Source: an uncultured Gammaproteobacteria bacterium
GTDB taxonomy: Bacteria > Patescibacteriota > Patescibacteriia > XYB2-FULL-38-15
DNA length: 64,000 bases
Reading direction: 5' to 3'
Assembly (NCBI GenBank): GCA_965231095.1
Contig: OZ246416.1
Location: 603,549-667,548, forward strand
The notes beneath the pieces were generated by a model. It did no database searches, was not told where the DNA came from, and was given only the letters and a program-made list of their open reading frames with translations. Both the position numbers and the translations under genes were made by a program. Shown piece by piece: positions 1,919-46,266 of the stretch (position 1 is its first letter; the number at the start of each line of letters is the position of its first letter).

Positions 1919-4255
1919 TTATTTTGCTGAAGTAAAACCAAACAAATAAAATCTGTCTGAATCAAGCGCACTCTCCGATTCTATTGCCGCCGCGCCAACC
2001 TTAACCCCGTTTCCCGACTGCCAGGCCGGCTGCCATCCCTTGGGAAAAGTTAAACTGTTGGTAAAAGTCGACAATACGCCTGACTGCTTTTGCACAAGTA
2101 ATTGATAGGTGGCGGCAGGATTTTTTTTCTCTCCAAACTTTTCTTGAATCCCGTCCAACCAATTTTTTTCCGCCACCGGAAGAGAAATTCTAAAAGGCAA
2201 AATATATTCCAGAGTAACCACCCCCGTCTCGCCCGGATCAACTTGAACCCAATTTCCAAAAACCGTTTTCCCAGATTCATTTGTTATCGTTGTTCCGGTC
2301 GTCGCATCAATTAAGGCATTTTTTTCGCTATTTTCAACATCTAAATCCACCCCAAAATCACTCTCCGGTTTTTCAAACAAATTCTCCGGGGGAGCTTCAA
2401 AGCCCGCGGCGTAAATCAAGGTACTGCCAAGCGGCGCATAAACCCGAAGATAATCAACATTTCTGACGCCCGTAAATAATTCCCTTTTTATTCCTTCGTG
2501 CGCCCTCGTGATTGTCAATTTATTTTTAACATAACCGCCCTCAACAATATTTGTCTCGAGATTGATTGTCTGTTTTATCACCCGATCGGTTTTTTGTCCG
2601 GCGATATTGGTATTAACTACGGCTAGATAATCAGTTTCTTCCGGGACAAATTTCACTTCCCCGCCCCAATCAAAATTTTTAATTTCATGCTCTATTTCCG
2701 GCGAAGTGGAATATAATAAAATATTTTTTTGACCAAGTGCCCGGAGAAGTACCGCTAAAATTTCCCCGAACTGTTTCGGCTCGGCGGCAAATAATTTAGC
2801 CAGGAGCTTCGGCGCCATATCGCTTAAAATTTTCTTTGGCTTATTTTCCACCTTGTCATATTCCATCTCCACCGCTTTTTGAATTTCATCAATAAAATTC
2901 TCTTTACTCAAAATTTTTCCGTATTCCGGCATTTCAATCGGTCCGACAATAGCCAGAAAATCGGCAACCAAATCAGCGTTCAAAGCAATAACTCCATCCA
3001 CGGTTGGCCCGCCGCTTTTTTCATAAAACCATTTTATTTTTTGCGCCGAAGTCGGAAAATCAAAAAACCAATTTGCGTCCTGAAGCTGCCACCTGGCATT
3101 CACGAGCCCAAGCGGTTCGGGCGCCGCGACGCGTTCCCGAAGCGACCCTTGAAAATCATAAGATCCTCCACCCGGCACTTCCATATTTTTTATTTCTCCC
3201 TGCCGGAAATCAACCAGGGCCAAACTTCCAATAAATCCGCCGGTCGGCCGAATTTCCCCCGGATTTTGAAAAACCACCAAATATCTTTTATCCATTTCAT
3301 CTCCTAAAAATTTTACCATCAAATCGGAAACTGAAATTAAATTTTTTATTCCGGAAACAAGTTGCGGCAATTTTCCTTGCAAAATTTGGAAGGCTTCTCG
3401 CTTATCCTCGGGTACAGATAAAATTTTTACGGCATAAATTTTGTCTGAAGAGGCCGCCACCTCCGGCAAGATTGCCGCCAAATCATCTCTTAAAATTTTT
3501 AACTTTTCTGTTAATTTTTTACCTCCTTCTTTCGCGGAAAAATCGGCCAAACTTCTTAAAACTTTTTCTCCGGCTGACGTTAATTTTTCCCCGGCAAAAA
3601 GCAGCGCCTCGCCTGCCTCAAGCTTTTCCCCCTCGCCCGGCATCGCCCTAAGAAGATTTAAAACTGTAGAATTAATTTGATTAATTTCCTCTCCCGAACG
3701 GGAAAAAGCGCGCGCCGCCTGGCCAAATTCATCTGCCGCGCCGGAAAAATCAGCGCTGGAAATTTTAACTCCTCCCGCCGACAAATTCGCGTAGGCTTCC
3801 TCTGCTGTTTGAAGCGTCAATTCTTCGGTTTTTTTCAATGATTCATAATAAGAAAAAGTTTGGAGAGGCAAAATAAAAAGAAAAGCCAAGGCTCCAAAGC
3901 TCAATAATTTTTTACAATCAGCCAGGGCAAACCTTAAAAATTTTAAAAATCTGGGGATCGCTAAAAACGCCAGGCCAATACTTTGAAATATTTTTTTTGG
4001 ACCGTAAAAAAATAAATTTTTAAGAATTTTTGTAAAAGCGATTCTCGCGCGGACAAAAGTCAGCCGGCTGATCCTCGCGCGGGAAACCGGCGGCATAACT
4101 TTCGCGGCCGCTTTCGGCTCCTCGTCTCGCGCCACTAGAACTTTTTTCGCCATCACTTTTTTCAAATCTAAAACGTGCGGCGACGAATGTTCGCCAAGGT
4201 GCGGCGTGCTCCTCGCCTCCAAAACTTTTTCTATTTTTTTATTTTTTGCCAGCAT
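1919..4255 (-). CDS. DUF4012-like envelope-associated protein. N-terminal TM helix, then a large extracytoplasmic domain.
   Basis: 778-aa ORF. It has an N-terminal hydrophobic segment (IGLAFLAIPRFLKFLRF...ALAFLFILPL) and the segment 'DGVIALNADLVADFLAIVGPIEMP', which I recall as characteristic of DUF4012 proteins found beside glycan clusters. It sits directly beside the GT4/sugar-transferase cluster. Confidence 0.55.
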   Translation of the reverse strand: MLAKNKKIEKVLEARSTPHLGEHSSPHVLDLKKVMAKKVLVARDEEPKAAAKVMPPVSRARISRLTFVRARIAFTKILKNLFFYGPKKIFQSIGLAFLAIPRFLKFLRFALADCKKLLSFGALAFLFILPLQTFSYYESLKKTEELTLQTAEEAYANLSAGGVKISSADFSGAADEFGQAARAFSRSGEEINQINSTVLNLLRAMPGEGEKLEAGEALLFAGEKLTSAGEKVLRSLADFSAKEGGKKLTEKLKILRDDLAAILPEVAASSDKIYAVKILSVPEDKREAFQILQGKLPQLVSGIKNLISVSDLMVKFLGDEMDKRYLVVFQNPGEIRPTGGFIGSLALVDFRQGEIKNMEVPGGGSYDFQGSLRERVAAPEPLGLVNARWQLQDANWFFDFPTSAQKIKWFYEKSGGPTVDGVIALNADLVADFLAIVGPIEMPEYGKILSKENFIDEIQKAVEMEYDKVENKPKKILSDMAPKLLAKLFAAEPKQFGEILAVLLRALGQKNILLYSTSPEIEHEIKNFDWGGEVKFVPEETDYLAVVNTNIAGQKTDRVIKQTINLETNIVEGGYVKNKLTITRAHEGIKRELFTGVRNVDYLRVYAPLGSTLIYAAGFEAPPENLFEKPESDFGVDLDVENSEKNALIDATTGTTITNESGKTVFGNWVQVDPGETGVVTLEYILPFRISLPVAEKNWLDGIQEKFGEKKNPAATYQLLVQKQSGVLSTFTNSLTFPKGWQPAWQSGNGVKVGAAAIESESALDSDRFYLFGFTSAK

Positions 4256-5619: not shown

Positions 5620-6774
5620 CTAACTGATTAATAACAAAAATTGACGCGCACAATCCTCCCAATTGAATTTTTCCGCTTGCTTTTTTCCTTTTTCAATCAA
5701 GTTCGCCCGAAAATTTTCATTGGTCAAGCATTGCTCCATGGCTTTTGCCATTTCCGCCGGGTTATTTGGATCAACCAAGAACGCCGCCTCACCCATTACT
5801 TCCGGAAGAGATGAATTCGTGCTGACAACAACCGGTGTCCCGGCTCGGGCGGCCTCAAGCGGGGGAAATCCAAATCCTTCATAAAATGAAGGGTAAACAA
5901 AAAGCCGTGCCAATTTATAAAAATATTTTTTTTCTTCCGGCGCGATGTAATCTATAAATTTTATATCATCGCGCGCCGGACTTTTTTTTGCCCGCGCCAA
6001 AATTTTTTTATAAAGCCAGCCGCGCGGACCGACAATCAATAATTTTAGATTTACGATTTCAGATTTTTGATTTCCCCTCAAAATTTCAAAAGCGCGAACT
6101 AATCCTTCAATATTTTTTCTCGGCTCAAGCGTCCCTAAAAACAAAATAAAATTATTCGGCAAATTATATTTTTTTCTAATTTTATCAATTCCCAATTCAT
6201 CATTCACGATTTCTAATTCCCGTCCCACTCCGGAATAAATAACCCCCACTTTTTCCACCGGCACACCATATAATTTGACCAAATCATTTTTAGTATTTTC
6301 CGAAACAGAAATAATTTTGTCCGCGCCGCAAATTATCTTTTGGGGATTGACAAACCAATGCCACAGTCGCCGTTTCCAGGAAAAAAATCTTGGAAAAAAT
6401 TCAAAAGATAGATCATGAACCGTGATCATTTTTTTAACTCCGCGCGATAAAGCTATAAAATTTAGATTTGGAATAAAAAATAAATCAATTTTATCTTTTA
6501 GTAATATCATCTTATCAACTTTTGGCCACTTCAAAAATTTAAAACAAAAATTCAATAACTTATTTGGCCAACGAAATCCGCAAAGACGAACATTAGAATT
6601 TTTTTTCCACTCCCCCAGAAAGTCTTCCTCAACTTTTTTCCAAGAATTATAAAAAAGGAAATAATTATTTTCTTTATCAATACAAAAAAGAGCGTCGAGA
6701 ATCTGATAAGTATATTCTCCGACGCCGCTTCTTTCTTTTTCTAAAAGCGATCTGATGTCAACGCCGATATTCAT
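5620..6774 (-). CDS. Glycosyltransferase family 4.
   Basis: 384 aa. MNIGVDIRSL..., with C-terminal EGFGFPPLEAARAGTPVVVSTNSSLPEVMGEAAFLVDP. Confidence 0.8.
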   Translation of the reverse strand: MNIGVDIRSLLEKERSGVGEYTYQILDALFCIDKENNYFLFYNSWKKVEEDFLGEWKKNSNVRLCGFRWPNKLLNFCFKFLKWPKVDKMILLKDKIDLFFIPNLNFIALSRGVKKMITVHDLSFEFFPRFFSWKRRLWHWFVNPQKIICGADKIISVSENTKNDLVKLYGVPVEKVGVIYSGVGRELEIVNDELGIDKIRKKYNLPNNFILFLGTLEPRKNIEGLVRAFEILRGNQKSEIVNLKLLIVGPRGWLYKKILARAKKSPARDDIKFIDYIAPEEKKYFYKLARLFVYPSFYEGFGFPPLEAARAGTPVVVSTNSSLPEVMGEAAFLVDPNNPAEMAKAMEQCLTNENFRANLIEKGKKQAEKFNWEDCARQFLLLIS

Positions 6775-6844
6775 AAAAGTCTCTTGTAGCTTTGTATGCG
6801 GTATTTTGTATTTTCAATAAATGCCAGATACAAAACACTATATA

Positions 6845-7948
6845 CTAAACACGCTGCTCTAGCTCTCTCCAGCTATTTTCTATATAATTTTTTATTTTTT
6901 CCTTAAAGGCGCCCACATCAAACTGCGCCGCGTGCGCCCGAATTTCTTCCGGATTATATTCTTCCGGCTTGAATCTGATAATCGTATGCGCGAGCGACTC
7001 CCAGCTCTGATCCGGAAAAAAAGTTCCGGTTTTCCCCTCCACCACCGTTTCCGCCGCCCCACCCTTTGGGTAAGCAATCACCGGCCGCCCGGAAGCCATG
7101 GCCTCAATCACCATTAATCCAAAATCTTCTTCCTGCGGATGGACAAAGGCAATACACTTTCCATATAATTCCCTTTTCTCAACGTCCGAAATTTTTCCCA
7201 AAAATTCAATGTTAGCCTTTGCCATTTCTTTCAATTTTTCAAGTTCCGGACCCTCTCCAAAAATTTTTAAAGGAACGCCAAGTTTATTAAAAGCCTGAAT
7301 TACAAGATCAAATCTCTTATAAGGAACAAGCCGCCCGCCGGCCAAGTAATACCTTTTTTGCGCTTCAGAAATTTTAAATTGTGAAACGTCAACCGGCGGA
7401 TAAATTACGTCGCTGTCCTTTCCATAATATTTAGAAATTCTTTTTTGCACGGTTTTTGAATTGGCGATAAATTTATCAACCCGCTCGGCCGCCATCCTAT
7501 CCCACATTCTAAGGCGCGGCAGCATCAATGACACCGCCCTTTTTACAAGCGACCCATGCGATAATTCTTTTATATAAAGATGCGTGTCGGTCCAAAGATA
7601 TCTTGTCGGCGTATGGCAATAACAAATATGCAGCGCGTCCGGCCGCGTAATTACGCCCTTGGAAAGCGCGCTTGAGTTTGAAAGAACAACATCATAACCG
7701 TCAAGTTCATGCTTTTCCGTAGCAAGCGGCATCAGAGGCAAAAACCATTTAAAATTTTTTACTCCGCCGGGAATTTTTTGAATAAAAGATGTTTTAACAT
7801 TTTTCCCGTCAAACTCCTTGCCCATTTTTTTCTTATCATAAACCAGGGAGTAAAGCGGAGCCTCCGGAAAAATTTCTCGGAAAACCCTAAGCACTCTTTC
7901 CGCCCCTCCGTCTTGCGTCAAGTGATCGTGGACTAAAGCGATTTTCAT
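6845..7948 (-). CDS. Glycosyltransferase family 4.
   Basis: 367 aa. MKIALVHDHL..., with EDFGLMVIEAMASGRPVIAYPKGGAAETVVEGKTGTFF. Confidence 0.8.
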   Translation of the reverse strand: MKIALVHDHLTQDGGAERVLRVFREIFPEAPLYSLVYDKKKMGKEFDGKNVKTSFIQKIPGGVKNFKWFLPLMPLATEKHELDGYDVVLSNSSALSKGVITRPDALHICYCHTPTRYLWTDTHLYIKELSHGSLVKRAVSLMLPRLRMWDRMAAERVDKFIANSKTVQKRISKYYGKDSDVIYPPVDVSQFKISEAQKRYYLAGGRLVPYKRFDLVIQAFNKLGVPLKIFGEGPELEKLKEMAKANIEFLGKISDVEKRELYGKCIAFVHPQEEDFGLMVIEAMASGRPVIAYPKGGAAETVVEGKTGTFFPDQSWESLAHTIIRFKPEEYNPEEIRAHAAQFDVGAFKEKIKNYIENSWRELEQRV

Positions 7949-7965
7949 ACTGAGTCTACTGAATT

Positions 7966-9378
7966 TTATTTTGCTCCTTTCCCAAAAAACACTACGAGCG
8001 GCGTTTTAAACAAAATATATAAATCAAGCTTCAATGACCAATTTTCAATGTAGTACGCGTCAATTTTCACCTCTTCTTCAAAATCAAGATCGGCGCGACC
8101 GGAGATCTGGGCGAGCCCGGTAATGCCCGGCCTCACAATCAAAACTTTTTTATGATGTTTTTTATATCTTGCCACTTCCTCCGGCAAATGCGGCCGCGGA
8201 CCGACCAAGCTCATCTTGCCGGTCAAAACTAAAAAGAATTCCGGCAGTTCATCAATGCTAAAGCGTCGGATAAATTTTCCCACGCGCGTCACCCGCGGAT
8301 CATCTTTAATTTTAACCAACGGCCCTTTTCTAAAATCTTGCTCGGCCAACTCGGTATAGCGCAAATTGTGAGTCCCTGGCTTCATGGACCGAAATTTAAA
8401 ATAATGAAACGGCTCGCCGTGCTGTCCAACTCTTTGAACTGCCGAGCCATCGTCCAATTTACTCCAAAAAATCGGGCCGCGAGAATCCAGCTTGATAGCA
8501 ATGGCCGTAAGGATCATAATCGGCGACGCGAGGATTATTAAAATCAAAGAACCAACAATATCAAAAATCCTTTTATAAACTCTTCCCCATCCTTCAAGCC
8601 GAGTTCTTTTAACTTCCGCCACCGGCACGCCGGCGTAATCGCGGATATCAATTTTTGCCGCTTGCACGGAAAAAATGTCGGCCGAATATTTAAAGACAAG
8701 ATGATGTTCGTTGCAAAAATCTATCAAGCTCAAAGTTTCTTCTCGGCTCGCTCCGCCTTGCGATAGAATTATTTCATCAACTCCAACCGCCCGGCTGATT
8801 TCTTCCAATTCTTTCGCCGCCGCGTCGTCAAATTTTTTATATCGCTTGATAACTTTTAAACCAAGCCCGGAGTTTTTAAAAAATTCATTAACCAAAATGT
8901 CAGCGGCCCGATCTTCGCCGATGATCACAACTCGGTGGACACCAACGCCTCGGCGGAAAAGCGCCCGTTGGATAAAGCGAACTGCCAGCCGGCCAAAACT
9001 CACAAAAATAATCGCGAAAATCCAGGCGGCCAAAATTATAAATCGGGAAGAAAATAATTCTCGGTTAAAAAAAACTAAAACAATGATAGCGGCAAGGCCC
9101 GCGGAACAGGCGACAAAAATTTTTGTGAGTTCATCTAAAATCCGCCGCGTACCGCCAATCGTGTAAAGCCCGGTTAAAGCAAAAATAACAAGCCAAATAA
9201 CAGCCATGCTTGCCGCGATATTCAAAAAATTCCAAAAAGGCATTTCGTAAATTACCGGACTAAATTGCGCCAAGGTTTGGAATCTTAAAAAATAAGCAGC
9301 CAGGGCTGCCAAAATAAGCATTATAAAATCCAGCGGAACTAAAATTACGGAAAAAATTAATTCTGATTTTTTGAGCAT
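7966..9378 (-). CDS. Polyprenyl-phosphate sugar phosphotransferase (WbaP/CpsE-like priming glycosyltransferase, bacterial sugar transferase family).
   Basis: 470 aa. It has N-terminal TM helices and a C-terminal domain with KRIFDIVGSLILIIL...DSRGPIFWSKL...FKFRSM...MSLVGPRPHLPEEV...GITGLAQISGR. Confidence 0.85.
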   Translation of the reverse strand: MLKKSELIFSVILVPLDFIMLILAALAAYFLRFQTLAQFSPVIYEMPFWNFLNIAASMAVIWLVIFALTGLYTIGGTRRILDELTKIFVACSAGLAAIIVLVFFNRELFSSRFIILAAWIFAIIFVSFGRLAVRFIQRALFRRGVGVHRVVIIGEDRAADILVNEFFKNSGLGLKVIKRYKKFDDAAAKELEEISRAVGVDEIILSQGGASREETLSLIDFCNEHHLVFKYSADIFSVQAAKIDIRDYAGVPVAEVKRTRLEGWGRVYKRIFDIVGSLILIILASPIMILTAIAIKLDSRGPIFWSKLDDGSAVQRVGQHGEPFHYFKFRSMKPGTHNLRYTELAEQDFRKGPLVKIKDDPRVTRVGKFIRRFSIDELPEFFLVLTGKMSLVGPRPHLPEEVARYKKHHKKVLIVRPGITGLAQISGRADLDFEEEVKIDAYYIENWSLKLDLYILFKTPLVVFFGKGAK

Positions 9379-9411
9379 ATATATTAGGTAACAAATGTGA
9401 TCCCCTAAAAT

Positions 9412-9846
9412 TTACCCGAGTAACTATAAGCCGGATTCTGTATCTCGCAGTGATGCGAGACGGTAATCATCTATCTAGGATTTTGATTGCTCAAAATCTC
9501 GAGCGGCTATTTTTGGCCTTGCACCGGATAGGTGTTTTCCACGGCGCCTGTCACCAGGCTGTCCCGCGTGAGCTCTTACCTCACGATTTCAACCTTACCT
9601 CCGCCTTTCGGCGGATCGGCGGTGTATTTTCTGTTGCACTGTCCGTGGGCTTCATTAATTGATGTTCGATTAAGCTCTATCCGCCGCGTAAACGGCAAAT
9701 ATAGCACAAACAACAAAACTTACTCCCCGTCGCTGTTAGCGACTATCTCTCTTTCGGCTTTATGCCGAAACGGTGTCCGGACTTTCCTCTCTCTTTTCCC
9801 CGATTTTAAACGGAAAAATGAGAGCGATTACCCATTACTCGGATAA
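9412..9846 (-). ncRNA. rnpB: RNase P RNA, bacterial type.
   Basis: The minus strand carries the universally conserved P4 elements GAGAGGAAAGTCCGGAC (5' region) and ACAGAATCCGGCTTAT (3' region). The 5' and 3' ends can pair as P1 (CCGAGTAA / TTACTCGG). No protein ORF is present. Confidence 0.7.
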
Positions 9847-11035: not shown

Positions 11036-12805
11036 TTATACCTCAATTATGACTGGAAGCACCATTGGCCGGCGTTCGGTTTTGGTGAAGAGAAATTGGC
11101 CGATGTTGTCGCGAATTTTATTTTTAATGAAAACATTGTCCGCCGCTGATTTCGGATCGCGGTCGGAAATTAATTTTTTCACCTTGGCGCGAACTTGCTC
11201 AATCAATTCTTTACTCTCGCGCATATAGACAAACCCGCGGGAAATAATATCCGGGCTGCCGATCAAATATCCGGTTTTTGTATCAATGGTCGCGATAATC
11301 ACAATCATTCCGTCTTCAGCCATCATCTTCCGATCGCGAAGCACGACCTGGCTCACATCACCAACGCCAAGACCATCAACCATCACGTAATCCGTCGGAA
11401 CGCGTTGTGGCGTAAGCCGGCCTATTGTGCCGGAGAGATCTTTTCCCGCCGCTTGAAATTCCATCACCTGGCCATTGTCCGCAACAAAAATATTTTTCGG
11501 ATCAAAGCCGATACTCTCGGCGACTTTTCCGTTCAGTCGCAGATGAGAGTGGCTGCCTTCAATCGGAATAAAATATTTTGGATTAACCAAACGAATCATC
11601 AATTTAATATCCTCGGCTTTAGCATGGCCGCCGGCATGAATATCCATCATTTTATAGTGAACCACTTCCGCCCCCTTGCGATAGAGCGTATCTTTTAATC
11701 TTTGAATTGTTCTTTCATTTCCCGGAACAACTGATGAAGAAAAAACAATCGTGTCGCGCGGCTCAATCCTAACAAAACGATGTTCTTCATTGGCAATCCT
11801 CATCAAAACCGCCCGCTCTTCGCCTTGCGCTCCAGTGCAAACAATAATAACTTTTTCTGGAGGATGATTATGAACGTCGGCAATATCTATCAATGTTCCT
11901 TGTTTAACTTTCAGATAACCGAGCGTCTTGATAATTTCCACATTGGTTTTCATGCTGAATCCGTCCACCGCAACTTTCTTGCCCATTTCCTCGGCGATGC
12001 GAATAATCTGTTCAACTCTTGAAAGTAATGAAGAAAAAGTTCCAATAATAATTCTTCCTGAAGCTTTTTCTATTAGGGCGCGCAGATTTTTTCCGATTTC
12101 TTGCTCGGAAATTTGATGGCCCTCCTCCGGCGCGTTCGTGCTATCGCTCATTAAAGCCAAAACACCATTTCTGCCAACCTCGGCGATCTTCGCAAAATCC
12201 GCCGGACGTTCGTCAACCGGCGTATAATCAAACTTCCAATCGCCGGTGTGAATGACTGTTCCGACCGGAGTATGAACCACCACCGCCACGGAATCGGGAA
12301 TATTATGATTCACGTGAATAAATTCCACTTTGAATTTTCCCAAAGTCAGAATATCACTTTCTTTCACAACCGCCGTATTCAACTTTGTGCTCTTGTAATC
12401 TTCCTGGCGTTTTTTAATAATCGCGAGCGTCAACTGCGTTCCGTAAATCGTTGGATTGCCAAGCCGCGGAATAAGATGCGGAATGCCGCCGATATGATCA
12501 TAATGTCCGTGAGTGATTACTACCCCGCGGATATTTTTTTCCTTACCTTTCAAATACGAAATGTTGGGAATAATATAATCAATTCCCGGCATGTCTTCTT
12601 CCGGAAATTGCAAACCCATATCAATTAAAATGATATCATTTTCATATTCCAAAAGAGTCATGTTGCGGCCGACTTCTTCCAGGCCGCCCAGCACAATCAC
12701 TTTCAATTTTGGCGCGCCGGGAGTTTTGGCATAGCTGGAAGTTTTAGTATAAAATTTTCCGGAGCCATGCCCTCTTTGTTTTTTTTCTTTTTTATAATAC
12801 ATCAT
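11036..12805 (-). CDS. rnj: Ribonuclease J (metallo-beta-lactamase/beta-CASP RNase).
   Basis: 589 aa. LKVIVLGGLEEVGRNMTLLEY..., VVITHGHYDHIGGIPHL, and a beta-CASP region. Confidence 0.88.
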   Translation of the reverse strand: MMYYKKEKKQRGHGSGKFYTKTSSYAKTPGAPKLKVIVLGGLEEVGRNMTLLEYENDIILIDMGLQFPEEDMPGIDYIIPNISYLKGKEKNIRGVVITHGHYDHIGGIPHLIPRLGNPTIYGTQLTLAIIKKRQEDYKSTKLNTAVVKESDILTLGKFKVEFIHVNHNIPDSVAVVVHTPVGTVIHTGDWKFDYTPVDERPADFAKIAEVGRNGVLALMSDSTNAPEEGHQISEQEIGKNLRALIEKASGRIIIGTFSSLLSRVEQIIRIAEEMGKKVAVDGFSMKTNVEIIKTLGYLKVKQGTLIDIADVHNHPPEKVIIVCTGAQGEERAVLMRIANEEHRFVRIEPRDTIVFSSSVVPGNERTIQRLKDTLYRKGAEVVHYKMMDIHAGGHAKAEDIKLMIRLVNPKYFIPIEGSHSHLRLNGKVAESIGFDPKNIFVADNGQVMEFQAAGKDLSGTIGRLTPQRVPTDYVMVDGLGVGDVSQVVLRDRKMMAEDGMIVIIATIDTKTGYLIGSPDIISRGFVYMRESKELIEQVRAKVKKLISDRDPKSAADNVFIKNKIRDNIGQFLFTKTERRPMVLPVIIEV

Positions 12806-31387: not shown

Positions 31388-31497
<110 letters not shown>

Positions 31498-31548
31498 TCA
31501 AGCTAAAAACGCTTGAAATTTATTTTTGTATGTTTGCACAATTCTTGT

Positions 31549-34555
<3,007 letters not shown>

Positions 34556-34916
34556 ACAAGAATTGTTAAAACATACATTTTACAATTCTCATTTACTTTT
34601 TTGGTTCTCTTTCTTATGTTGGGTATTAAGATGCTCTTTTATTCAATTGTCAACGAACAATTTTTTTCTGTTTCTCGCCTCTCGTTTTATTTAGAGACCA
34701 GAGGCGGGAGCAAAAAATAATTTTAAATTTTTGGAAAAAGGACTAAAAAACCGCTCTTTCCGAGCGGCTTGGTACGACCAAAAAATAGGTTAGCCACTCG
34801 GGAACTTATAAGTTAAAACTTGTTTTACCATATTTTGCCCAATATCAGAGAAAAATTGTCAGGTGTAACTCTGGATAAAATGTGGACAACTTCCTCCGTT
34901 TTCTTAGTACATTAGT

Positions 34917-35058: not shown

Positions 35059-35271
35059 TCAGCTCCGCAGACTCTTGAACCAGCGGGCGATTCGCCCCAA
35101 GACGACCACGGCCACGAGAGCGACCATGACTGTGAGGCCGAACCGGAGTGCGATCCAGTCCTCTGTCCCGCAGATGAGCGCGAAGACAATCGCGGCCGCT
35201 CCTCCGAGCAACGCGACGGTCAGCTCCTTGCCGAGCACCGACCGTTCCTCCCAAAACTCTTTGATCCCCAT
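35059..35271 (-). CDS. Small two-TM membrane protein (70 aa), GC-rich islet.
   Basis: MGIKEFWEERSVLGKELTVALLGGAAAIVFALICGTEDWIALRFGLTVMVALVAVVVLGRIARWFKSLRS. High GC. It is last in the minus-strand islet operon. Confidence 0.45.
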   Translation of the reverse strand: MGIKEFWEERSVLGKELTVALLGGAAAIVFALICGTEDWIALRFGLTVMVALVAVVVLGRIARWFKSLRS

Positions 35272-35287
35272 CCAATCCTCCTCCCTC

Positions 35288-35497
35288 TCAACGCAGGTTG
35301 CGCAACTCCTCGCCGCGCTTCCTCTTCTCGAGCCAGGCCAAAAAGATCGTCAACGCGAGAAGAACGAAGAACCCGATGACGAACGGAACGACGCCTGGCT
35401 GTTTGAGCTTCAACCGGTACAGCCCGATCGCGAGCGAAACGTCCGAGAGAACCGCGGAGATCGTCGCGGCGATAACGAGTCCCCAATTGGGGTTCAT
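35288..35497 (-). CDS. Small two-TM membrane protein (69 aa), GC-rich islet.
   Basis: Internal Met of track ORF 35288..35707: MNPNWGLVIAATISAVLSDVSLAIGLYRLKLKQPGVVPFVIGFFVLLALTIFLAWLEKRKRGEELRNLR. Its start overlaps the upstream stop as ATGA, indicating translational coupling. Confidence 0.45.
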   Translation of the reverse strand: MNPNWGLVIAATISAVLSDVSLAIGLYRLKLKQPGVVPFVIGFFVLLALTIFLAWLEKRKRGEELRNLR

Positions 35498-35799
35498 GTG
35501 CACGTCCTTTCCTCGCCGGCCTGCCGCCGCTTGCCATACCACACCTTGAGATCCGCGCCGTGTTCCCAGTGCTTGGCCAAAGCAACGACCGCCTGGCAGA
35601 GCTGGATGTCCGTGAGGCGAAGGTTGGTCTCGTCCTTCGTCTCCAGGGCGATGTCTCCCATCGCCTCGAATCCGCTCGCGAGCCGCGCTTCCATCCGCAA
35701 AGCCCAACGCTCGGCGAAACGGAGAATCCGCCCCCCGTAACTATCCTCGGGGTTTGCCTCGAGTACCCGCTCCCACTCTCCCTGATTTTTGACTTTCAT
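35494..35799 (-). CDS. Hypothetical 101-aa protein, GC-rich islet.
   Basis: MKVKNQGEWERVLEANPEDSYGGRILRFAERWALRMEARLASGFEAMGDIALE... No recognisable domain. It is coupled to the downstream small membrane proteins. Confidence 0.45.
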   Translation of the reverse strand: MKVKNQGEWERVLEANPEDSYGGRILRFAERWALRMEARLASGFEAMGDIALETKDETNLRLTDIQLCQAVVALAKHWEHGADLKVWYGKRRQAGEERTCT

Positions 35800-35820
35800 T
35801 TTTCTCCTCCCTCCGCCGCG

Positions 35821-36189
35821 CTAACCGCCGGCGAGCAGACGCCTGACTTCCTCCGGCAATTTTTCCTTGCCGTTGATTTCAAAAGTACAACCGGCCTCCA
35901 CCATCATGTGCCGGAATTTCCCGTCGCTCGACATAGCAATCACCGTACCGCCGAAGGTCAAACGAAGCTCGTCAATGAGCGGCAATGTGTCGGGCTTGTT
36001 GCCCGGGACACGACGCAAGCAACCATCCAGAGCAACAATCCGAACGTCGGGATGTTCCGAGAAGAGCCGCCTTGCTTCTTCGACCGTACGAGCCTGCAGA
36101 AGCGTAGCCCAACCCGCAAACTCGCGGACAAAGTACGACTGCCACGCCGAATGATCCTCTACCACGAGTACTTTTGGAAGCCCACTCAT
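35821..36189 (-). CDS. Receiver (REC/CheY)-like domain protein, atypical (ED instead of DD acidic pair).
   Basis: MSGLPKVLVVEDHSAWQ...ARTVEEARRLFSEHPDVRIVALDGCL...TVIAMSSDGK... has a receiver-like alpha/beta pattern. A strong SD (GGGGAGGAAGAAGGAGGG) precedes the ATG, and a promoter-like TTGACA/TATAAT region lies at 36243-36258. GC-rich. Confidence 0.45.
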   Translation of the reverse strand: MSGLPKVLVVEDHSAWQSYFVREFAGWATLLQARTVEEARRLFSEHPDVRIVALDGCLRRVPGNKPDTLPLIDELRLTFGGTVIAMSSDGKFRHMMVEAGCTFEINGKEKLPEEVRRLLAGG

Positions 36190-36290
36190 CCTAACCCTCC
36201 TTCTTCCTCCCCATTACAACCTGACATATTAAATTATATCAAAATTATATTTTTGTCAACCCCGTCAGCCGAAATATTTTGTATCAAAAA

Positions 36291-36401: not shown

Positions 36402-36485
36402 ATGGGCAGGGAGGGAGTTGAACCCTCAAGCTCTTTCGAGCACAAGCTCCTAAGGCTTGCGTGTCTGCCAGTTTCACCACCTGCC
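36402..36485 (-). tRNA. tRNA-Leu (anticodon UAG).
   Basis: Minus strand: GGGCAGG-TG-GTGAAACTGGCAGACAC-GCAAGC-CTTAGGA-GCTTG-T-GCTCGAAAGAGC-TTGAGGGTTCAACTCCCTC-CCTGCCC-A. Long variable arm; anticodon loop cuUAGga. Confidence 0.8.
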
Positions 36486-36532
36486 CAAAATGAGTAGAGT
36501 CGGGGCGCGCTTGCCCCGTCGGATGACGGGGT

Positions 36533-40196: not shown

Positions 40197-40508
40197 TTAC
40201 CAATCGGGTTTGGACGATCCGCCGCAGCGATCGCACTTGCTTCCACTCCCTCGCCCCATATCCACCCTGCAATCGTCGCAGAAGGCGTGAATTTCCACCT
40301 TGTAACCCTTGCCGTCGCAGGCGGAACACTCAATGTACACCGAACCCCCACGACCCGAACCATCACATCGACCGCAGACCTTTTCCCCACCGAAAAAACC
40401 TTGCTTCCAACCCTTGCCGTCGCAGGCGGAACAACGCCCGTCGTGAGAAAATTTCTGCCCGCTTCCTCCGCAATTCTCGCACTCTACACGCGCCGTGTCC
40501 TTTGACAT
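40197..40508 (-). CDS. Small Cys-rich protein with DnaJ-type CxxCxGxG zinc-finger repeats (103 aa), GC-rich islet.
   Basis: CENCGGSG, CSACDGKG, CGRCDGSG, CSACDGKG, CDDC, CDRCGGS. A strong SD (GGGGAGGATACAAAGC) precedes the ATG. High GC. A terminator hairpin lies downstream. Confidence 0.5.
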   Translation of the reverse strand: MSKDTARVECENCGGSGQKFSHDGRCSACDGKGWKQGFFGGEKVCGRCDGSGRGGSVYIECSACDGKGYKVEIHAFCDDCRVDMGRGSGSKCDRCGGSSKPDW

Positions 40509-42674: not shown

Positions 42675-42797
42675 TTGTTCGCTCGGCACCAATACATAGG
42701 TGTGTCAATTTTAATTTAAAAGGGGCTTCCGCCCCCTTGGCCACTAGAAAAATTACTTGATTGGTTTAAAAAGAAGTGATAGGATAAAAAATAATTT

Positions 42798-42880
42798 GCC
42801 CGGGTGGTGAAATGGTATACACGCAAGACTTAAAATCTTGTGACCGAAAGGTCGTGAGGGTTCGAGTCCCTCCCCGGGCA
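42798..42880 (+). tRNA. tRNA-Leu (anticodon UAA).
   Basis: GCCCGGG-TG-GTGAAATGGTATACAC-GCAAGA-CTTAAAA-TCTTG-T-GACCGAAAGGTCG-TGAGGGTTCGAGTCCCTC-CCCGGGC-A. Confidence 0.85.
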
Positions 42881-43001
42881 TTTAGAAAACTATAAATTTT
42901 ATTTTGACTCTGCCCCTCTTATGGGGTTGCTTTTTTTATTATTATCTTTTAATATATAAAGTCGCCATAAAAACATCCTCGTCAAAAGAAAGGAGGAGCC
43001 A

Positions 43002-43214
43002 ATGAGCGACTCACGAGAACTTTCGGTTGAAGAAGCTCAGGGCCCCTGCGGCGATAGTCGTCACCGTTGGCGATTCGCTAACCCTCCGCAATACCGATGG
43101 AATACGCGCCAGGTTCTTGCCGAATGTACAAATTGCCACGGCACCTACTGGGCTCAACTCTCACCCGAAAAATGGCAACGGTTTCTGATGTATCTGGGAG
43201 CAAGCAGAAAATAG
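43002..43214 (+). CDS. Hypothetical 70-aa protein with Cys/His zinc-ribbon-like spacing (GC-rich islet).
   Basis: SD AAAGGAGGAG lies 6 nt upstream. ...GPCGDSRHRW...CTNCHGTYW. High GC. Confidence 0.45.
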   Translation: MSDSRELSVEEAQGPCGDSRHRWRFANPPQYRWNTRQVLAECTNCHGTYWAQLSPEKWQRFLMYLGASRK

Positions 43215-43232
43215 GCGGCAGAGGAGGGCTGT

Positions 43233-43484
43233 ATGGAGAACGAAACGCTGACCTTTTCTGACCTCGAACCAGGACAGAACTTCGCTGTTCTGCCTGGCAA
43301 GGGATATAGTCGCCGGCGGGACGGCGACTGGCTCCGGGCGAGTAACCTCTTCTTGAGAGTCGCGAATCCGAACGGCAACGCCTTGCGAACCTGCGACAAC
43401 GAGATCTTCAAGATTCCCGACTCCGTACCCGTGATCCGAGTGAACATCAGCGGCAAAGCCGCTAGAAGAAGGAGGGGGAGATGA
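43233..43484 (+). CDS. Hypothetical 83-aa protein (GC-rich islet).
   Basis: SD GAGGAGGG lies upstream. Its stop overlaps the next start (ATGA). Confidence 0.45.
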   Translation: MENETLTFSDLEPGQNFAVLPGKGYSRRRDGDWLRASNLFLRVANPNGNALRTCDNEIFKIPDSVPVIRVNISGKAARRRRGR

Positions 43485-43963
43485 GTGCTAGTGAACCCGT
43501 GAAGCCAGAACAGACGGTCTGCGAGAAGAACGTAGACGTCCCGACTCTTCTGGTCGAACCTCTCTCGGCATCGAGTCGGCCGATCCGAGAAACTTTCGTC
43601 CAATGGTTTGGCCGGGCGAACGGCGCGGATCTCGGAGAAAGACAGTTCCGTTTCCCTGTGCCGCTACACCACGCAGACCGGCACTGGGAGGGGAATCCTC
43701 TGTTTTGGAAGGTTACTTTTCTCGGTACATTCCAAAAGTTTCCTTGGAATCCCCGGTCCAGGGAAATATACCGTGAAATCGCACCGTTTAGAGATAACCC
43801 TGACGCCGAAATCTTGGTCGCTCACCTTCGCGAACCAAGACACCCCGAAGATCCTGAACTGGACTCTTTCGGCCTCATGATCCCGATGACGACTCACCTG
43901 ACAGACTCCGCGTACGGGATCATCGCGCCACGAGAGTACCGCGACAGGACTATTTTTCCATAG
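43481..43963 (+). CDS. Hypothetical 160-aa protein (GC-rich islet).
   Basis: SD AGGAGGGGGAG lies upstream, and the gene is translationally coupled to the preceding one. No recognisable domain. Confidence 0.45.
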   Translation: MSASEPVKPEQTVCEKNVDVPTLLVEPLSASSRPIRETFVQWFGRANGADLGERQFRFPVPLHHADRHWEGNPLFWKVTFLGTFQKFPWNPRSREIYREIAPFRDNPDAEILVAHLREPRHPEDPELDSFGLMIPMTTHLTDSAYGIIAPREYRDRTIFP

Positions 43964-44084
43964 AGGAGGTTCGACAAAAAACAACAGAGCACGACCTGCG
44001 GGTACGGCTCTTTTTTATTGCTTTTTTATTCTACTTCTTCTAAGATAGCCAGATCGTTCCTTGAAAAAAGGAGGAAAGATAAAA

Positions 44085-45152
44085 ATGGATCACGAACTTG
44101 CTTCGTGCCAGAATGTCCTAGCCGATCGCGCAACGCGAGACGAAGACGCCAGACGGCGTTATCCCGAGTCCGAGGACGATGATGGTTGGCTCATGGATCC
44201 CTCGAACGTTGTCTCGCCCTATCTAATTGATGTTTCAAAGATCATGAACTGCCGGGCGCTACGGCGAGGGGGCGACAAAACCCAGGTCCGACCACTTGAG
44301 CCGAACACACACATCCGGCGGCGCCTTTCCCATTCGCTCGGCGTAGCGGGACTTGCTGTGCCGGTCGCCAAATTACTTGGTCTCCACCCCGATCTCACGC
44401 ACGCCGCGGGTCTTGGCCATGACATAGGCCACACCCCTTTCGGTCACACGGGCGAAGTCACCCTCTCTCGGCTTTCCGGAAAAAAAATCTGCCACGAAAT
44501 TCTAGGTGTCGTCATCGCTCAAAAAGTGGAACGCCGCGGCCGCGGTTTAAACCTCACACACCAGACACTTCTCTGTCTCCGGGATCACTCGCGCGGCGAC
44601 GGCCAGTTTGGCACCGAAACGTGCGAGTCGGAAGAGAGCGCCCTCGCCATGCACACCGACAAGATTGACTACTTCTGGGCCGACTATCACGACGTCTTTG
44701 AACGGGGTGATTGTTTGAACCCATCGGACTATCCCGAACTGGTCGGACTAGCCCAGTGGTTCGGCAAGGGATATCGCTCACGTACGGCAAAATGCCTTCG
44801 GGCGCTCTGTCTTGAATCAAAGGCGGCCGGCCGGATTTCTTTCGGGCTGTGCGAAGAGGCGATGCGGCTCACTCGAGTCAAGGAAATCATGTACGGAAAA
44901 ATCTACAACGTCGTGAACCGCCGGACGGAAATCATTTCCTTGATCGAGAGAGTCTATCGGGCGCTTGAGAAAATCGCACCCCACCTCGATCCCGTGTTCT
45001 TCATCGCGCTCTTGGGTGACCAAGAACTTCTTGGTCTCGCAAAAAAAGACAACCTTTCGCCTGCCGACCTTGCCGGCCTCTCGGCCACGGAGATTCTTGC
45101 GAACCTCAAGGAGACGAAGCTCGACCTCACGAACCCTGACTTGGGGTGGTGA
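44085..45152 (+). CDS. dGTPase-like deoxynucleoside triphosphate triphosphohydrolase (HD-domain phosphohydrolase).
   Basis: SD AAAGGAGGAAAG lies upstream of the ATG at 44085. HD-domain motifs: IRRRLSHSLGVAGLA (LTHSLEV-like) and HDIGHTPFGHTGE (HDxGHxPFGH). GC-rich. Confidence 0.6.
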   Translation: MDHELASCQNVLADRATRDEDARRRYPESEDDDGWLMDPSNVVSPYLIDVSKIMNCRALRRGGDKTQVRPLEPNTHIRRRLSHSLGVAGLAVPVAKLLGLHPDLTHAAGLGHDIGHTPFGHTGEVTLSRLSGKKICHEILGVVIAQKVERRGRGLNLTHQTLLCLRDHSRGDGQFGTETCESEESALAMHTDKIDYFWADYHDVFERGDCLNPSDYPELVGLAQWFGKGYRSRTAKCLRALCLESKAAGRISFGLCEEAMRLTRVKEIMYGKIYNVVNRRTEIISLIERVYRALEKIAPHLDPVFFIALLGDQELLGLAKKDNLSPADLAGLSATEILANLKETKLDLTNPDLGW

Positions 45153-45243
45153 GTAGCCTTGGTCCATAACCGTCCCAGGAGAAATGGGGCGGTTTTTTTA
45201 TTGCCAAAAAGGGAGAAATAAGATAAAATTGGAGAATAAAAAT

Positions 45244-46266
45244 ATGCCTGACGAAAGAATTGTCACCCCAAAAGAACAAAATGAAGACCAAGCGTTTGAC
45301 GCGACGCTCCGGCCGAAAGTTTTGGCTGAATATATTGGCCAAGAACAGATTAAAAAAAATCTGGAAATTTTTATTTCCGCGGCGAAAAAAAGAAAAGAGC
45401 CGATTGAACATGTCCTGCTTTACGGCTGTCCCGGCCTTGGGAAAACAACTTTGGCCCACGTCATCTCAAATGAAATGGGCGCCCAGATCCGCATCACTTC
45501 CGGTCCGGCGATTGAGCGCGCCGGCGACCTGGCGGCAATTCTCACCAATCTCGGTGAAGGCGATATTTTGTTTATTGATGAAATCCATCGTCTGAATAAA
45601 GTGATCGAAGAAGTTTTATACCCGGCCATGGAAGAATACGCATTGGATCTGGTAATTGGAAAAGGGCCGGGGGCGAGAACCGTGCGGCTCGATTTACCGC
45701 GCTTCACAATTATCGGCGCCACGACAAAAGTCAGCATGATTTCCTCGCCGCTCCGCGACCGCTTTGGCGCGACCTATCATTTAAACTTTTATGAAGACGC
45801 GGACATTGGAAAAATTATTAACCGTAGCGCCAAAATTTTAAATATAAAAATTGATGAGGGCGCCATAGAGCTTCTCGCGAGCCGCGCCCGAAAAACTCCG
45901 CGCGTCGCAAACCGTATTTTAAAACGCGTCCGCGATTACGCTGAAGTGAAAGCTGATGGTATAATAACAATAGAGCTCGCTGAAGTTGCCTTAAAAAACT
46001 TGGGGGTTGACCAATTCGGCTTGGATCAAATTGACCGCCGAATCCTTGAATCAATTATTAAAAAATTCCAGGGCGGCCCGGTCGGCCTGAACACCCTTTC
46101 GGCGGCAACCGGCGAAGAACAAGCCACGATTGAAGAAGTTTATGAGCCATATCTTTTGCAACTTGGATTTTTAAACCGCACCCCGCGAGGCCGAGTGGCG
46201 ACCGAGACGGCGTACAAACATCTCGGGATTGCTCCGCCGCAAAATTTACAAGAAAAATTAGTTTAA
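45244..46266 (+). CDS. ruvB: Holliday junction branch-migration helicase RuvB.
   Basis: [54 protein letters not shown]... (AAA+ Walker A), sensor and winged-helix C-terminus. The start was chosen at MPDERIV (45244) rather than the track start at 45184. Confidence 0.9.

Follow-up and report, generated by a model that had tools for sequence, protein, structure and literature searches.

The closest described counterparts of the locus considered here are of two kinds: for its arrangement, the tRNA-adjacent islands and flexible islets of streamlined bacteria and the cassette arrays of integrons; and for the enzyme that it encodes, the Thermus thermophilus TT1383-type deoxynucleoside triphosphate (dNTP) triphosphohydrolase, or dNTPase, and the anti-phage dGTPases. 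The locus lies in a window of 64,000 nucleotides (64 kb), the whole stretch of DNA analyzed, from a bacterium of the Patescibacteria (candidate phyla radiation, CPR). It fills the slot between the genes for tRNA-Leu(UAA) and RuvB, where three small genes, called o70, o83, and o160 after the lengths of their products in amino acids (aa), are followed by a gene for a 355-aa protein with an HD domain, hereafter HD. On balance, we think that positions 42882-45200 are probably what this genome carries of a cassette array that varies between strains of one Patescibacteria lineage, and that HD would be an accessory nucleotide-metabolism function that trims the dNTP pool.

As in the tRNA-adjacent islands and flexible islets of streamlined bacteria, the slot abuts the 3' side of a tRNA gene, has a foreign composition, varies among relatives, and has an empty counterpart. 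Unlike typical tRNA islands, it has neither an integrase nor a direct repeat of the tRNA 3' end, its breakpoints vary by strain, and its cargo consists of small promoter-to-terminator cassettes with a common head. The comparison with integron arrays is similarly mixed. Both are single chromosomal sites with small, co-oriented, exchangeable cassettes (from zero to at least four in the slot) that carry unrelated cargo, but no IntI-type integrase, no attI site, and no attC-like imperfect inverted repeats were seen at the slot, and its cassettes, in contrast to the promoterless ones of integrons, have promoter-like heads of their own and hold up to three genes. As a flexible region beside a tRNA gene, the islet is of a known kind; what is unusual is its very regular organization into cassettes, with no recombinase.

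Evidence for this arrangement comes from the slot content of relatives, which were gathered through the HD, o83, and o160 proteins and also, independently of the cargo, through the bPH_2 gene downstream of ruvB. In close relatives, the flanking proteins are 82 to 95% identical to those of the window (93 to 95% for RuvB), and the content between tRNA-Leu and ruvB is unlike in every lineage mapped. The window itself has the order tRNA-Leu, o70-o83-o160 plus HD, and ruvB. At one extreme, the slot of L107 is empty, with 163 bp between tRNA-Leu and ruvB. HD stands alone in L004 and in L011 (a 2.1-kb contig that does not include ruvB), o160 stands alone in L009 and L095, and L094 has o70-o83-o160 without HD. 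The longer variants are those of L002, with genes for a HAD protein, o83-purM-like, purC, pyrF, pyrE, and HD, and of L008 (shared by L010 and L097), with o83-purM-like, purB, purC, pyrF, pyrE, and DUF559 and without HD. Furthermore, L098 carries pyrF-pyrE, and L100 carries PEP-synthase-like genes followed by genes for a small HD protein and a deoxynucleoside kinase, a 156-aa open reading frame (ORF), and an o160-like gene. L011 and L008 agree in their left flank (an HNH gene and a variant tRNA-Leu) and in the sequence beyond the last terminator on the right, and differ in the cargo that lies in between (HD in the former and pur/pyr genes in the latter). The interval from tRNA-Leu to ruvB is a real, strain-variable islet, and both the presence/absence pattern of its modules and their independence of each other are seen directly. 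The first-pass annotation, made from the window's sequence, had proposed a mobile islet at the tRNA gene, and the empty site in L107, the other cargo of relatives, and the foreign composition described below bear this out.

The borders of the slot are conserved on both sides. On the left lies tRNA-Leu(UAA), placed on the plus strand at 42797-42881 by ARAGORN (anticodon taa) and at 42798-42880 by Rfam, and the same tRNA-Leu forms the border in L002, L004, L009, L094, L100, and L107. It is followed, as had been noted at first reading, by a terminator-like hairpin and T-run (42912-42940, plus strand; hairpin 42912-42927, -9.1 kcal/mol), the hairpin sequence of which varies among relatives with the identity of the first cassette. 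On the right lies ruvB with its promoter-like site (45201-46266, plus strand; promoter-like site 45201-45229, start most likely at 45244). The hairpin and T-run that close the HD cassette (45168-45201, plus strand; -16.7 kcal/mol) end in a tail, TTTTTTTATTGC, that overlaps the -35 element of the ruvB promoter, and this junction is identical in L002, L004, L094, and L009. Genes for PolX, RuvB, a 76-aa protein, a bPH_2 protein, and SpoIID are among those flanking the slot. The entire locus is reproduced exactly in an independent assembly (L001), and an Rfam scan of 42700-45300 returned no known RNA family besides the tRNA.

Composition and divergence set the cargo apart from its surroundings. 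Positions 43001-45000 form the 2-kb stretch with the highest GC content of the 64-kb window (0.552 versus about 0.44), and GC content at third codon positions (GC3) is 0.49 to 0.70 in o70, o83, o160, and HD versus 0.35 to 0.51 in the flanking genes. Across the slot variants, GC3 reaches 0.58 to 0.71 in HD and 0.82 to 0.90 in the pur/pyr genes, against 0.35 to 0.49 in the flanks. The GC excess of HD over its own locus is +0.12 to 0.15 here and +0.03 to 0.085 in other CPR lineages. Between genomes whose RuvB proteins are 93 to 95% identical, the HD proteins are 60 to 74% identical, a divergence 3 to 8 times that of the flanking genes. Synonymous divergence (dS) is 1.4 to 1.9 or saturated for HD, above that of the flanks (0.7 to 1.5), and lies below it for o83 (0.20 to 0.65) and o160 (0.61). 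The slot cargo is compositionally foreign.

The four genes had initially been described as GC-rich, equipped with ribosome-binding sites, and joined in one unit, and the first two of these features hold. On the plus strand, o70 occupies 43002-43214 and o83 occupies 43233-43484, o160 occupies 43481-43963 and is coupled to o83 by an ATGA overlap, and HD occupies 44085-45152 as a single-gene cassette; each is preceded by a GGAGG-type ribosome-binding site. The unit itself is split. A terminator-like hairpin with a U-run follows o160 (43986-44017, plus strand; hairpin 43986-44011, -13.3 kcal/mol, z = -2.8), none of 200 shuffled sequences gave one as good, and the same hairpin trails the o160 homologues of L094 and L009. 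Immediately after it comes a promoter-like element at 44018-44047. Because a hairpin with a T-run and then a promoter-like head lie between them, the o70-o83-o160 operon and HD are read as two transcription units rather than one.

The junction alignment shows that this anatomy is general. Every cassette opens with an AT-rich head, continues with a short 5' untranslated region (5'UTR) that includes the ribosome-binding site and then with GC-rich ORFs, one to three in number, and closes with a GC-rich hairpin. The head measures about 30 to 45 nt, has the consensus TTTGCTTTTTTATT...TTTTAAGATA(N)GCCAGA, and reads as a sigma-70-type promoter, so that a promoter function can be predicted for it. The hairpin is followed by a TTTTTT(T)ATT(T)GC tail, the last bases of which double as the -35 element of whatever comes next, be it another head or the ruvB promoter (TTGCCA-17-TAAGAT/TAAAAT). 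In the window, the first head (42927-42956, plus strand) combines TTGCTT and TAATAT with a spacing of 17 to 18 nt and is a three-mismatch variant of the consensus. The second (44018-44047, plus strand) reads TTGCTTTTTTATT-N10-TAAGATA, with TTGCTT as the -35 element, a 17-nt spacer, and TAAGAT as the -10 element; it leads into a 5'UTR that is conserved among HD cassettes up to the ribosome-binding site, and in L004, L011, and L002 the same element tops the HD cassette, as it does every other cassette of the slot.

The head pattern is confined to the slot. Within the 64-kb window, it occurs only at 42927 and 44018, versus 0.01 occurrences expected, and in relatives it occurs exclusively at cassette starts within the slot: at 3662, 6217, and 7940 in L002; 7950, 9454, and 12101 in L008; 122, 1798, and 4416 in L010; 883 and 1250 in L094; 3819 in L098; 7297 and 7975 in L100; and once each in L004, L011, L009, and L095. 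Neither the empty-slot locus nor the more distant loci contained it, and no match to the head was found in IMG/VR. The cassettes that can be recognized in this way are o70, o83-purM-like, purB-purC, pyrF-pyrE, HD, o160, and o83-o160; in the window, o70 has been fused with o83-o160 into a single operon.

Two further sequence features were observed at the slots of relatives. The purB and pyrF cassettes have a common conserved 5'UTR, in which a small hairpin (GGGGCAUUUCGCCCU) is followed by GA..GGAAAGGA right before the start codon (L008, 9480-9530 and 12130-12165; L010, 1830-1880 and 4445-4480; L002, 6250-6300; L098, 3850-3900), and which may be a common regulatory RNA or protein-binding site. 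Additionally, short GC-rich palindromes, CCCCCACA...TGTGGGGG, are inserted after a cassette terminator, ahead of the following head or ruvB promoter (L008, about 12075-12105; L002, about 6188-6215; L100, about 8662-8690), and these look like a small REP/MITE-like element specific to the slot.

The HD protein can be placed more precisely than its neighbors. We take its start to be the ATG that gives 355 aa, the codon at which every homologue starts; with the TTG at 44061, further upstream, the protein would have 363 aa. The dGTPase motifs reported at first, SHSLGVAGLA and HDIGHTPFGHTGE, are present, and family searches agree with membership in the superfamily, starting with Pfam HD (E = 3.3e-12; 47 bits, cut-off 22). 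The best-scoring model is NCBIfam NF002327, the short "PRK01286.1-2" dGTPase, with 130.6 bits (cut-off 393) and a nearly full-length alignment (HD residues 10-292 to positions 14-291 of 345). Lower scores were obtained with TIGR01353 (dGTP_triPase; 88 bits, cut-off 152), the anti-phage dGTPase model NF041026 (63.7 bits, cut-off 400), and NF003701 (54 bits, cut-off 383). The PADLOC dGTPase model matches with an E value of 2.8e-28 over positions 28-166 of 395 (35%). The dGTPase-like assignment made from the motifs stands at the level of the superfamily, with scores below every curated family cut-off. The closest solved structure is the T. thermophilus putative dGTPase 2dqb, which we take to be TT1383, a broad-specificity dNTPase. 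It was matched with an E value of 2.6e-20 by the single sequence and of 7.7e-58 by the family profile, for which the runner-up structure lies at about 1e-30.

The metal ligands H83, H112, D113, and D192, which make up the H...HD...D signature, are invariant in an alignment of 30 family members, as are H116, H121, and E124 and the motif HDxGHxPFGHxGE, and all seven residues align to 2dqb. The PF13286 (HD_assoc) domain was not detected in HD or in its roughly 108 closest clusters, and it is present in more distant, canonical matches. Without exception, the proteins of these clusters measure about 350 aa, and their source is metagenome sequence of the Patescibacteria/DPANN type. The clade has a strongly conserved C-terminal motif, ID(F/L)T(D/N)PDL(D/G)W, that is absent from canonical dGTPases (window 45100-45152, residues about 340-355). 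When a genome collection was scanned with the HD family pattern, the matches listed included canonical dGTPases of Firmicutes and other phyla and no member of the CPR clade. In phages, the matches of HD are remote and partial, with less than 40% identity. Taken together, the motifs and profile scores show that HD is a new member of a known superfamily, that of dGTPases and dNTPases, with all catalytic residues intact and belonging to a divergent CPR/DPANN clade.

Within this superfamily, HD is nearer to the Thermus-type dNTPase than to the anti-phage dGTPases. With the former, its best match in both structure and family (2dqb; NF002327), it has in common a similar length (about 350 to 376 aa) and the H...HDxGHxPFGHxGE...D motifs. 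It differs in scoring 131 bits against the equivalog cut-off of 393, in lacking a detectable PF13286, in having its own C-terminal half, in the restriction of its clade to CPR/DPANN-type metagenome sequences, and in being encoded by a strain-variable cassette and not by a core gene. The anti-phage dGTPases (NF041026/NF003701, PADLOC; Vibrio Vdg, 9vwa; E. coli Dgt, 4x9e) belong to the same superfamily and have the same catalytic motifs, and the HD gene is accessory and horizontally mobile, as many defense genes are. Unlike them, HD aligns only over its N-terminal third to half, measures 355 aa versus about 400 to 505, and has no defense genes nearby in any context examined.

The company that HD keeps points to nucleotide metabolism. 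All slot cargo with a recognizable function belongs there: purM-like, purB, purC, pyrF, and pyrE genes, a deoxynucleoside kinase, a small HD phosphohydrolase, a HAD phosphatase, and the putative dNTPase itself. Among distant homologues, that of L120 adjoins genes for NUDIX, Maf, and HIT proteins, a nucleoside 2-deoxyribosyltransferase, and a UMPH-1 nucleotidase; a NUDIX gene neighbors the homologue of L122, and RNase J and glycosyltransferase genes neighbor that of L121. L006, from a more distant member of the Patescibacteria, has two tandem paralogues of 357 and 353 aa (6677-9062), each about 43 to 44% identical to the HD of the window; genes for DUF763 and a PpnN-like LOG nucleotide nucleosidase come after the pair. 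De novo synthesis of nucleotides is largely missing from CPR genomes, and CPR bacteria are presumed to rely on scavenged nucleotides. HD would most likely turn dNTPs into deoxynucleosides and triphosphate, which is the chemistry expected of the anti-phage dGTPases as well, and so set or trim the dNTP pool. Its enzymatic activity and physiological role are predictions from homology and context, in which HD would be one of several nucleotide-economy functions that the slot trades between strains, together with purM/purB/purC, pyrF/pyrE, and deoxynucleoside kinase. That purine, pyrimidine, deoxynucleoside-kinase, and dNTPase genes are traded through one slot suggests that strains adapt in large part along the axis of their nucleotide economy.

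Several considerations weigh against a nucleotide-metabolism cassette array. HD falls below every curated family cut-off, which leaves its substrate range uncertain, and an enzyme that destroys dNTPs is an odd metabolic asset for a presumed nucleotide scavenger. Being accessory, fast-diverging, and of foreign composition, HD would suit the description of a defense gene just as well, the PADLOC dGTPase model does match its N-terminal half, and enzymes of the dGTPase family are proven defense effectors (PMC13519002). As for the array, no recombinase was found, the head could be merely a locally favored promoter kept similar by gene conversion, and the relatives are metagenome contigs, in which the absence of HD means absence from the slot and not necessarily from the whole genome.

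The foremost alternative is that the HD cassette alone is an anti-phage effector, which would deplete dNTPs upon infection like anti-phage dGTPases and SAMHD1, its position in the slot being typical defense-gene turnover. We regard this as possible but rather doubtful. It is consistent with the superfamily and intact catalytic residues of HD, the PADLOC match, the presence or absence of HD among close relatives, its foreign composition and 3- to 8-fold protein divergence relative to the flanks, the established role of dGTPases as effectors, and the inclusion of dGTPases in defensome surveys of CPR genomes (PMC12259885). Against it, HD reaches 64 bits where NF041026 requires 400, is closer to Thermus-type models and to 2dqb, and is covered by the PADLOC model only at positions 28-166 of 395. 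The ratio of nonsynonymous to synonymous divergence (dN/dS) of HD is 0.13, which indicates purifying and not diversifying selection. The neighbors of HD are nucleotide-metabolism or housekeeping genes, and no defense gene was found in nine slot variants or in four more distant HD contexts; PADLOC searches of the small ORFs and of the sibling cargo gave nothing except homing-endonuclease-type matches. Homologous cassettes in defense islands did not appear in any of the slot variants or distant HD contexts examined.

This matters for annotation. A pipeline based on hidden Markov models would probably call HD a dGTPase defense system, given the PADLOC match, an assignment that the present evidence does not support. 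Defensome surveys of CPR bacteria depend on assignments of this kind, and their defense counts may be inflated, since the HD clade falls short of all curated cut-offs and has nucleotide-metabolism genes for neighbors.

A mode of exchange for the cassettes of the array can be proposed from their junctions. No integrase ORF was found in or beside the slot, and neither an attC-like site nor a tRNA-derived direct repeat was present. The breakpoints are not fixed, because which hairpin follows the tRNA depends on the first cassette. Exchange would most likely proceed by homologous recombination, for which tRNA-Leu and the ruvB promoter, as conserved flanks, and the recurrent heads and tails would provide the shared sequence. 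Free-standing genes of homing-endonuclease type (HNH, GIY-YIG, and DUF559/Vsr-like) lie at slot edges (L008, 7340-7893 and 13959-14369; L011, 102-660; L009, 7607-7946) and, more speculatively, may aid gene conversion. In L008 and L011, the HNH gene adjoins a tRNA-Leu(taa) allele that has diverged from the tRNA of the window (about 85% identity over the aligned part), which suggests that tRNA and endonuclease gene were converted together.

A bolder extension of these observations, which we advance only tentatively and think improbable as a whole, is that the slot is an integrase-less gene-capture array. Foreign GC-rich ORFs from different donors would be fused to a resident head and a hairpin/T-run tail and swapped between strains; the head would be a functional signature (a recombination substrate, an operator of a nucleotide-metabolism regulon, or both), and o70, o83, and o160 would be cassette-specific components. 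Whatever its origin, a uniform head and tail on unrelated, horizontally acquired cassettes makes a testable case of modular exchange without a recognizable recombinase.

Far less probable is the proposal with which the locus was first described, that all four genes form one nucleotide-depletion defense module with the small proteins as sensors, regulators, or antitoxin-like partners of HD. The genes are indeed co-oriented and adjacent, with a common elevated GC content and the o83/o160 overlap, but HD is set off from o160 by a terminator and by a promoter-like head of its own. Moreover, the modules occur independently among relatives: the trio without HD (L094), o160 alone (L009/L095), o83-purM without HD (L008, L010, and L097), and HD alone (L004 and L011), a distribution that speaks against accessory or regulatory partners. 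The small proteins have no match in PADLOC, PHROGs, or Pfam, and the recognizable sibling cargo belongs to nucleotide metabolism; the defense module as such is not upheld. That HD is a vertically inherited housekeeping dGTPase, and the islet mere local composition with lineage-specific small ORFs, is equally remote: ruvB directly follows HD in the window, L002, and L004, and the HD family is widespread in CPR and DPANN genomes, but the slot is empty in L107 and lacks HD in L094, L009, L008, L098, and L100 despite flanks 82 to 95% identical, HD identity is 60 to 74% where RuvB reaches 93 to 95%, dS is above and GC3 far above that of the flanks, and neither the vertical, syntenic inheritance nor the missing islet boundary that would mark a housekeeping gene was found.

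The three small proteins are three conserved families tied to the tRNA-Leu-ruvB slot. Because they are under purifying selection (dN/dS of 0.22 for o70, 0.29 to 0.44 for o83, and 0.20 to 0.51 for o160), o70, o83, and o160 are real, conserved genes. None of them matched a family in Pfam, NCBIfam, PADLOC, or PHROGs. The Cys and His residues of o70 that had been remarked on at first (Cys16, His21, Cys42, Cys45, and His46) are kept in its single homologue (L094; 67% identical), and a metal-binding role is possible on that basis. The o83 protein has a basic C-terminal tail and five homologue clusters among 5.8 billion sequences. It is always an operon leader, coupled either to o160 or to a purM-like gene; in L008, L010, and L002, its homologues are translationally coupled, as leader, to an AIRS/purM-like gene. 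Its constant leader position and its coupling to one or the other gene are the sole functional lead on the small proteins. The o160 protein likewise has five homologue clusters among 5.8 billion sequences, and its profile retrieved 57 representatives (E ≤ 1e-3) among 1.84 billion proteins, with no Pfam domain in 23 distant members; it is a small uncharacterized family. Profile searches of o160 and o83 against the PDB returned nothing, neither protein had a match in GenBank phages or IMG/VR, and AlphaFold2 models from five-sequence alignments reached predicted confidence (pLDDT) values of 36 (o160) and 55 (o83), too low for a fold search.

Three other candidates at the locus were set aside. An antisense ORF of 149 aa (43154-43603, minus strand) was rejected as a gene, its apparent conservation mirroring the plus-strand genes. 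The small genes were considered as remnants of the pur/pyr genes of relatives, which the lack of tblastn similarity and the purifying selection contradict. A 159-aa ORF upstream of HD in L004, considered as an o160 homologue, is the end of PolX.

Elsewhere in the window, a second GC-rich patch (about 0.53) spans 35200-36200, with the 23S rRNA gene on one side and tRNA-Leu(tag) (36402-36487, minus strand) on the other. It holds two ORFs on the minus strand, of 101 aa (35494-35799) and 122 aa (35821-36189). The former matches Pfam PF25186, "Type I Thoeris inhibitor Tad4" (E = 9.2e-19; 68 bits, cut-off 25), and represents a homologue of a phage-type anti-defense protein in a Patescibacteria chromosome, beside another tRNA-Leu. 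The latter has a receiver-like N terminus and no family match. The window includes, at 31388-34557 on the minus strand, genes for 23S rRNA (3,013 nt versus a model of 2,925 positions) and 5S rRNA, with no adjacent 16S gene; unlinked rRNA genes are typical of CPR genomes. RNase P RNA is encoded at 9411-9843 on the minus strand. Finally, a GC-rich ORF of 103 aa (40197-40508, minus strand) has repeated CxxCxGxG zinc-finger motifs resembling the central domain of DnaJ (29.7 bits, cut-off 32.7) and sits between the gene for a large LTD-domain surface protein and tRNA-Gly.

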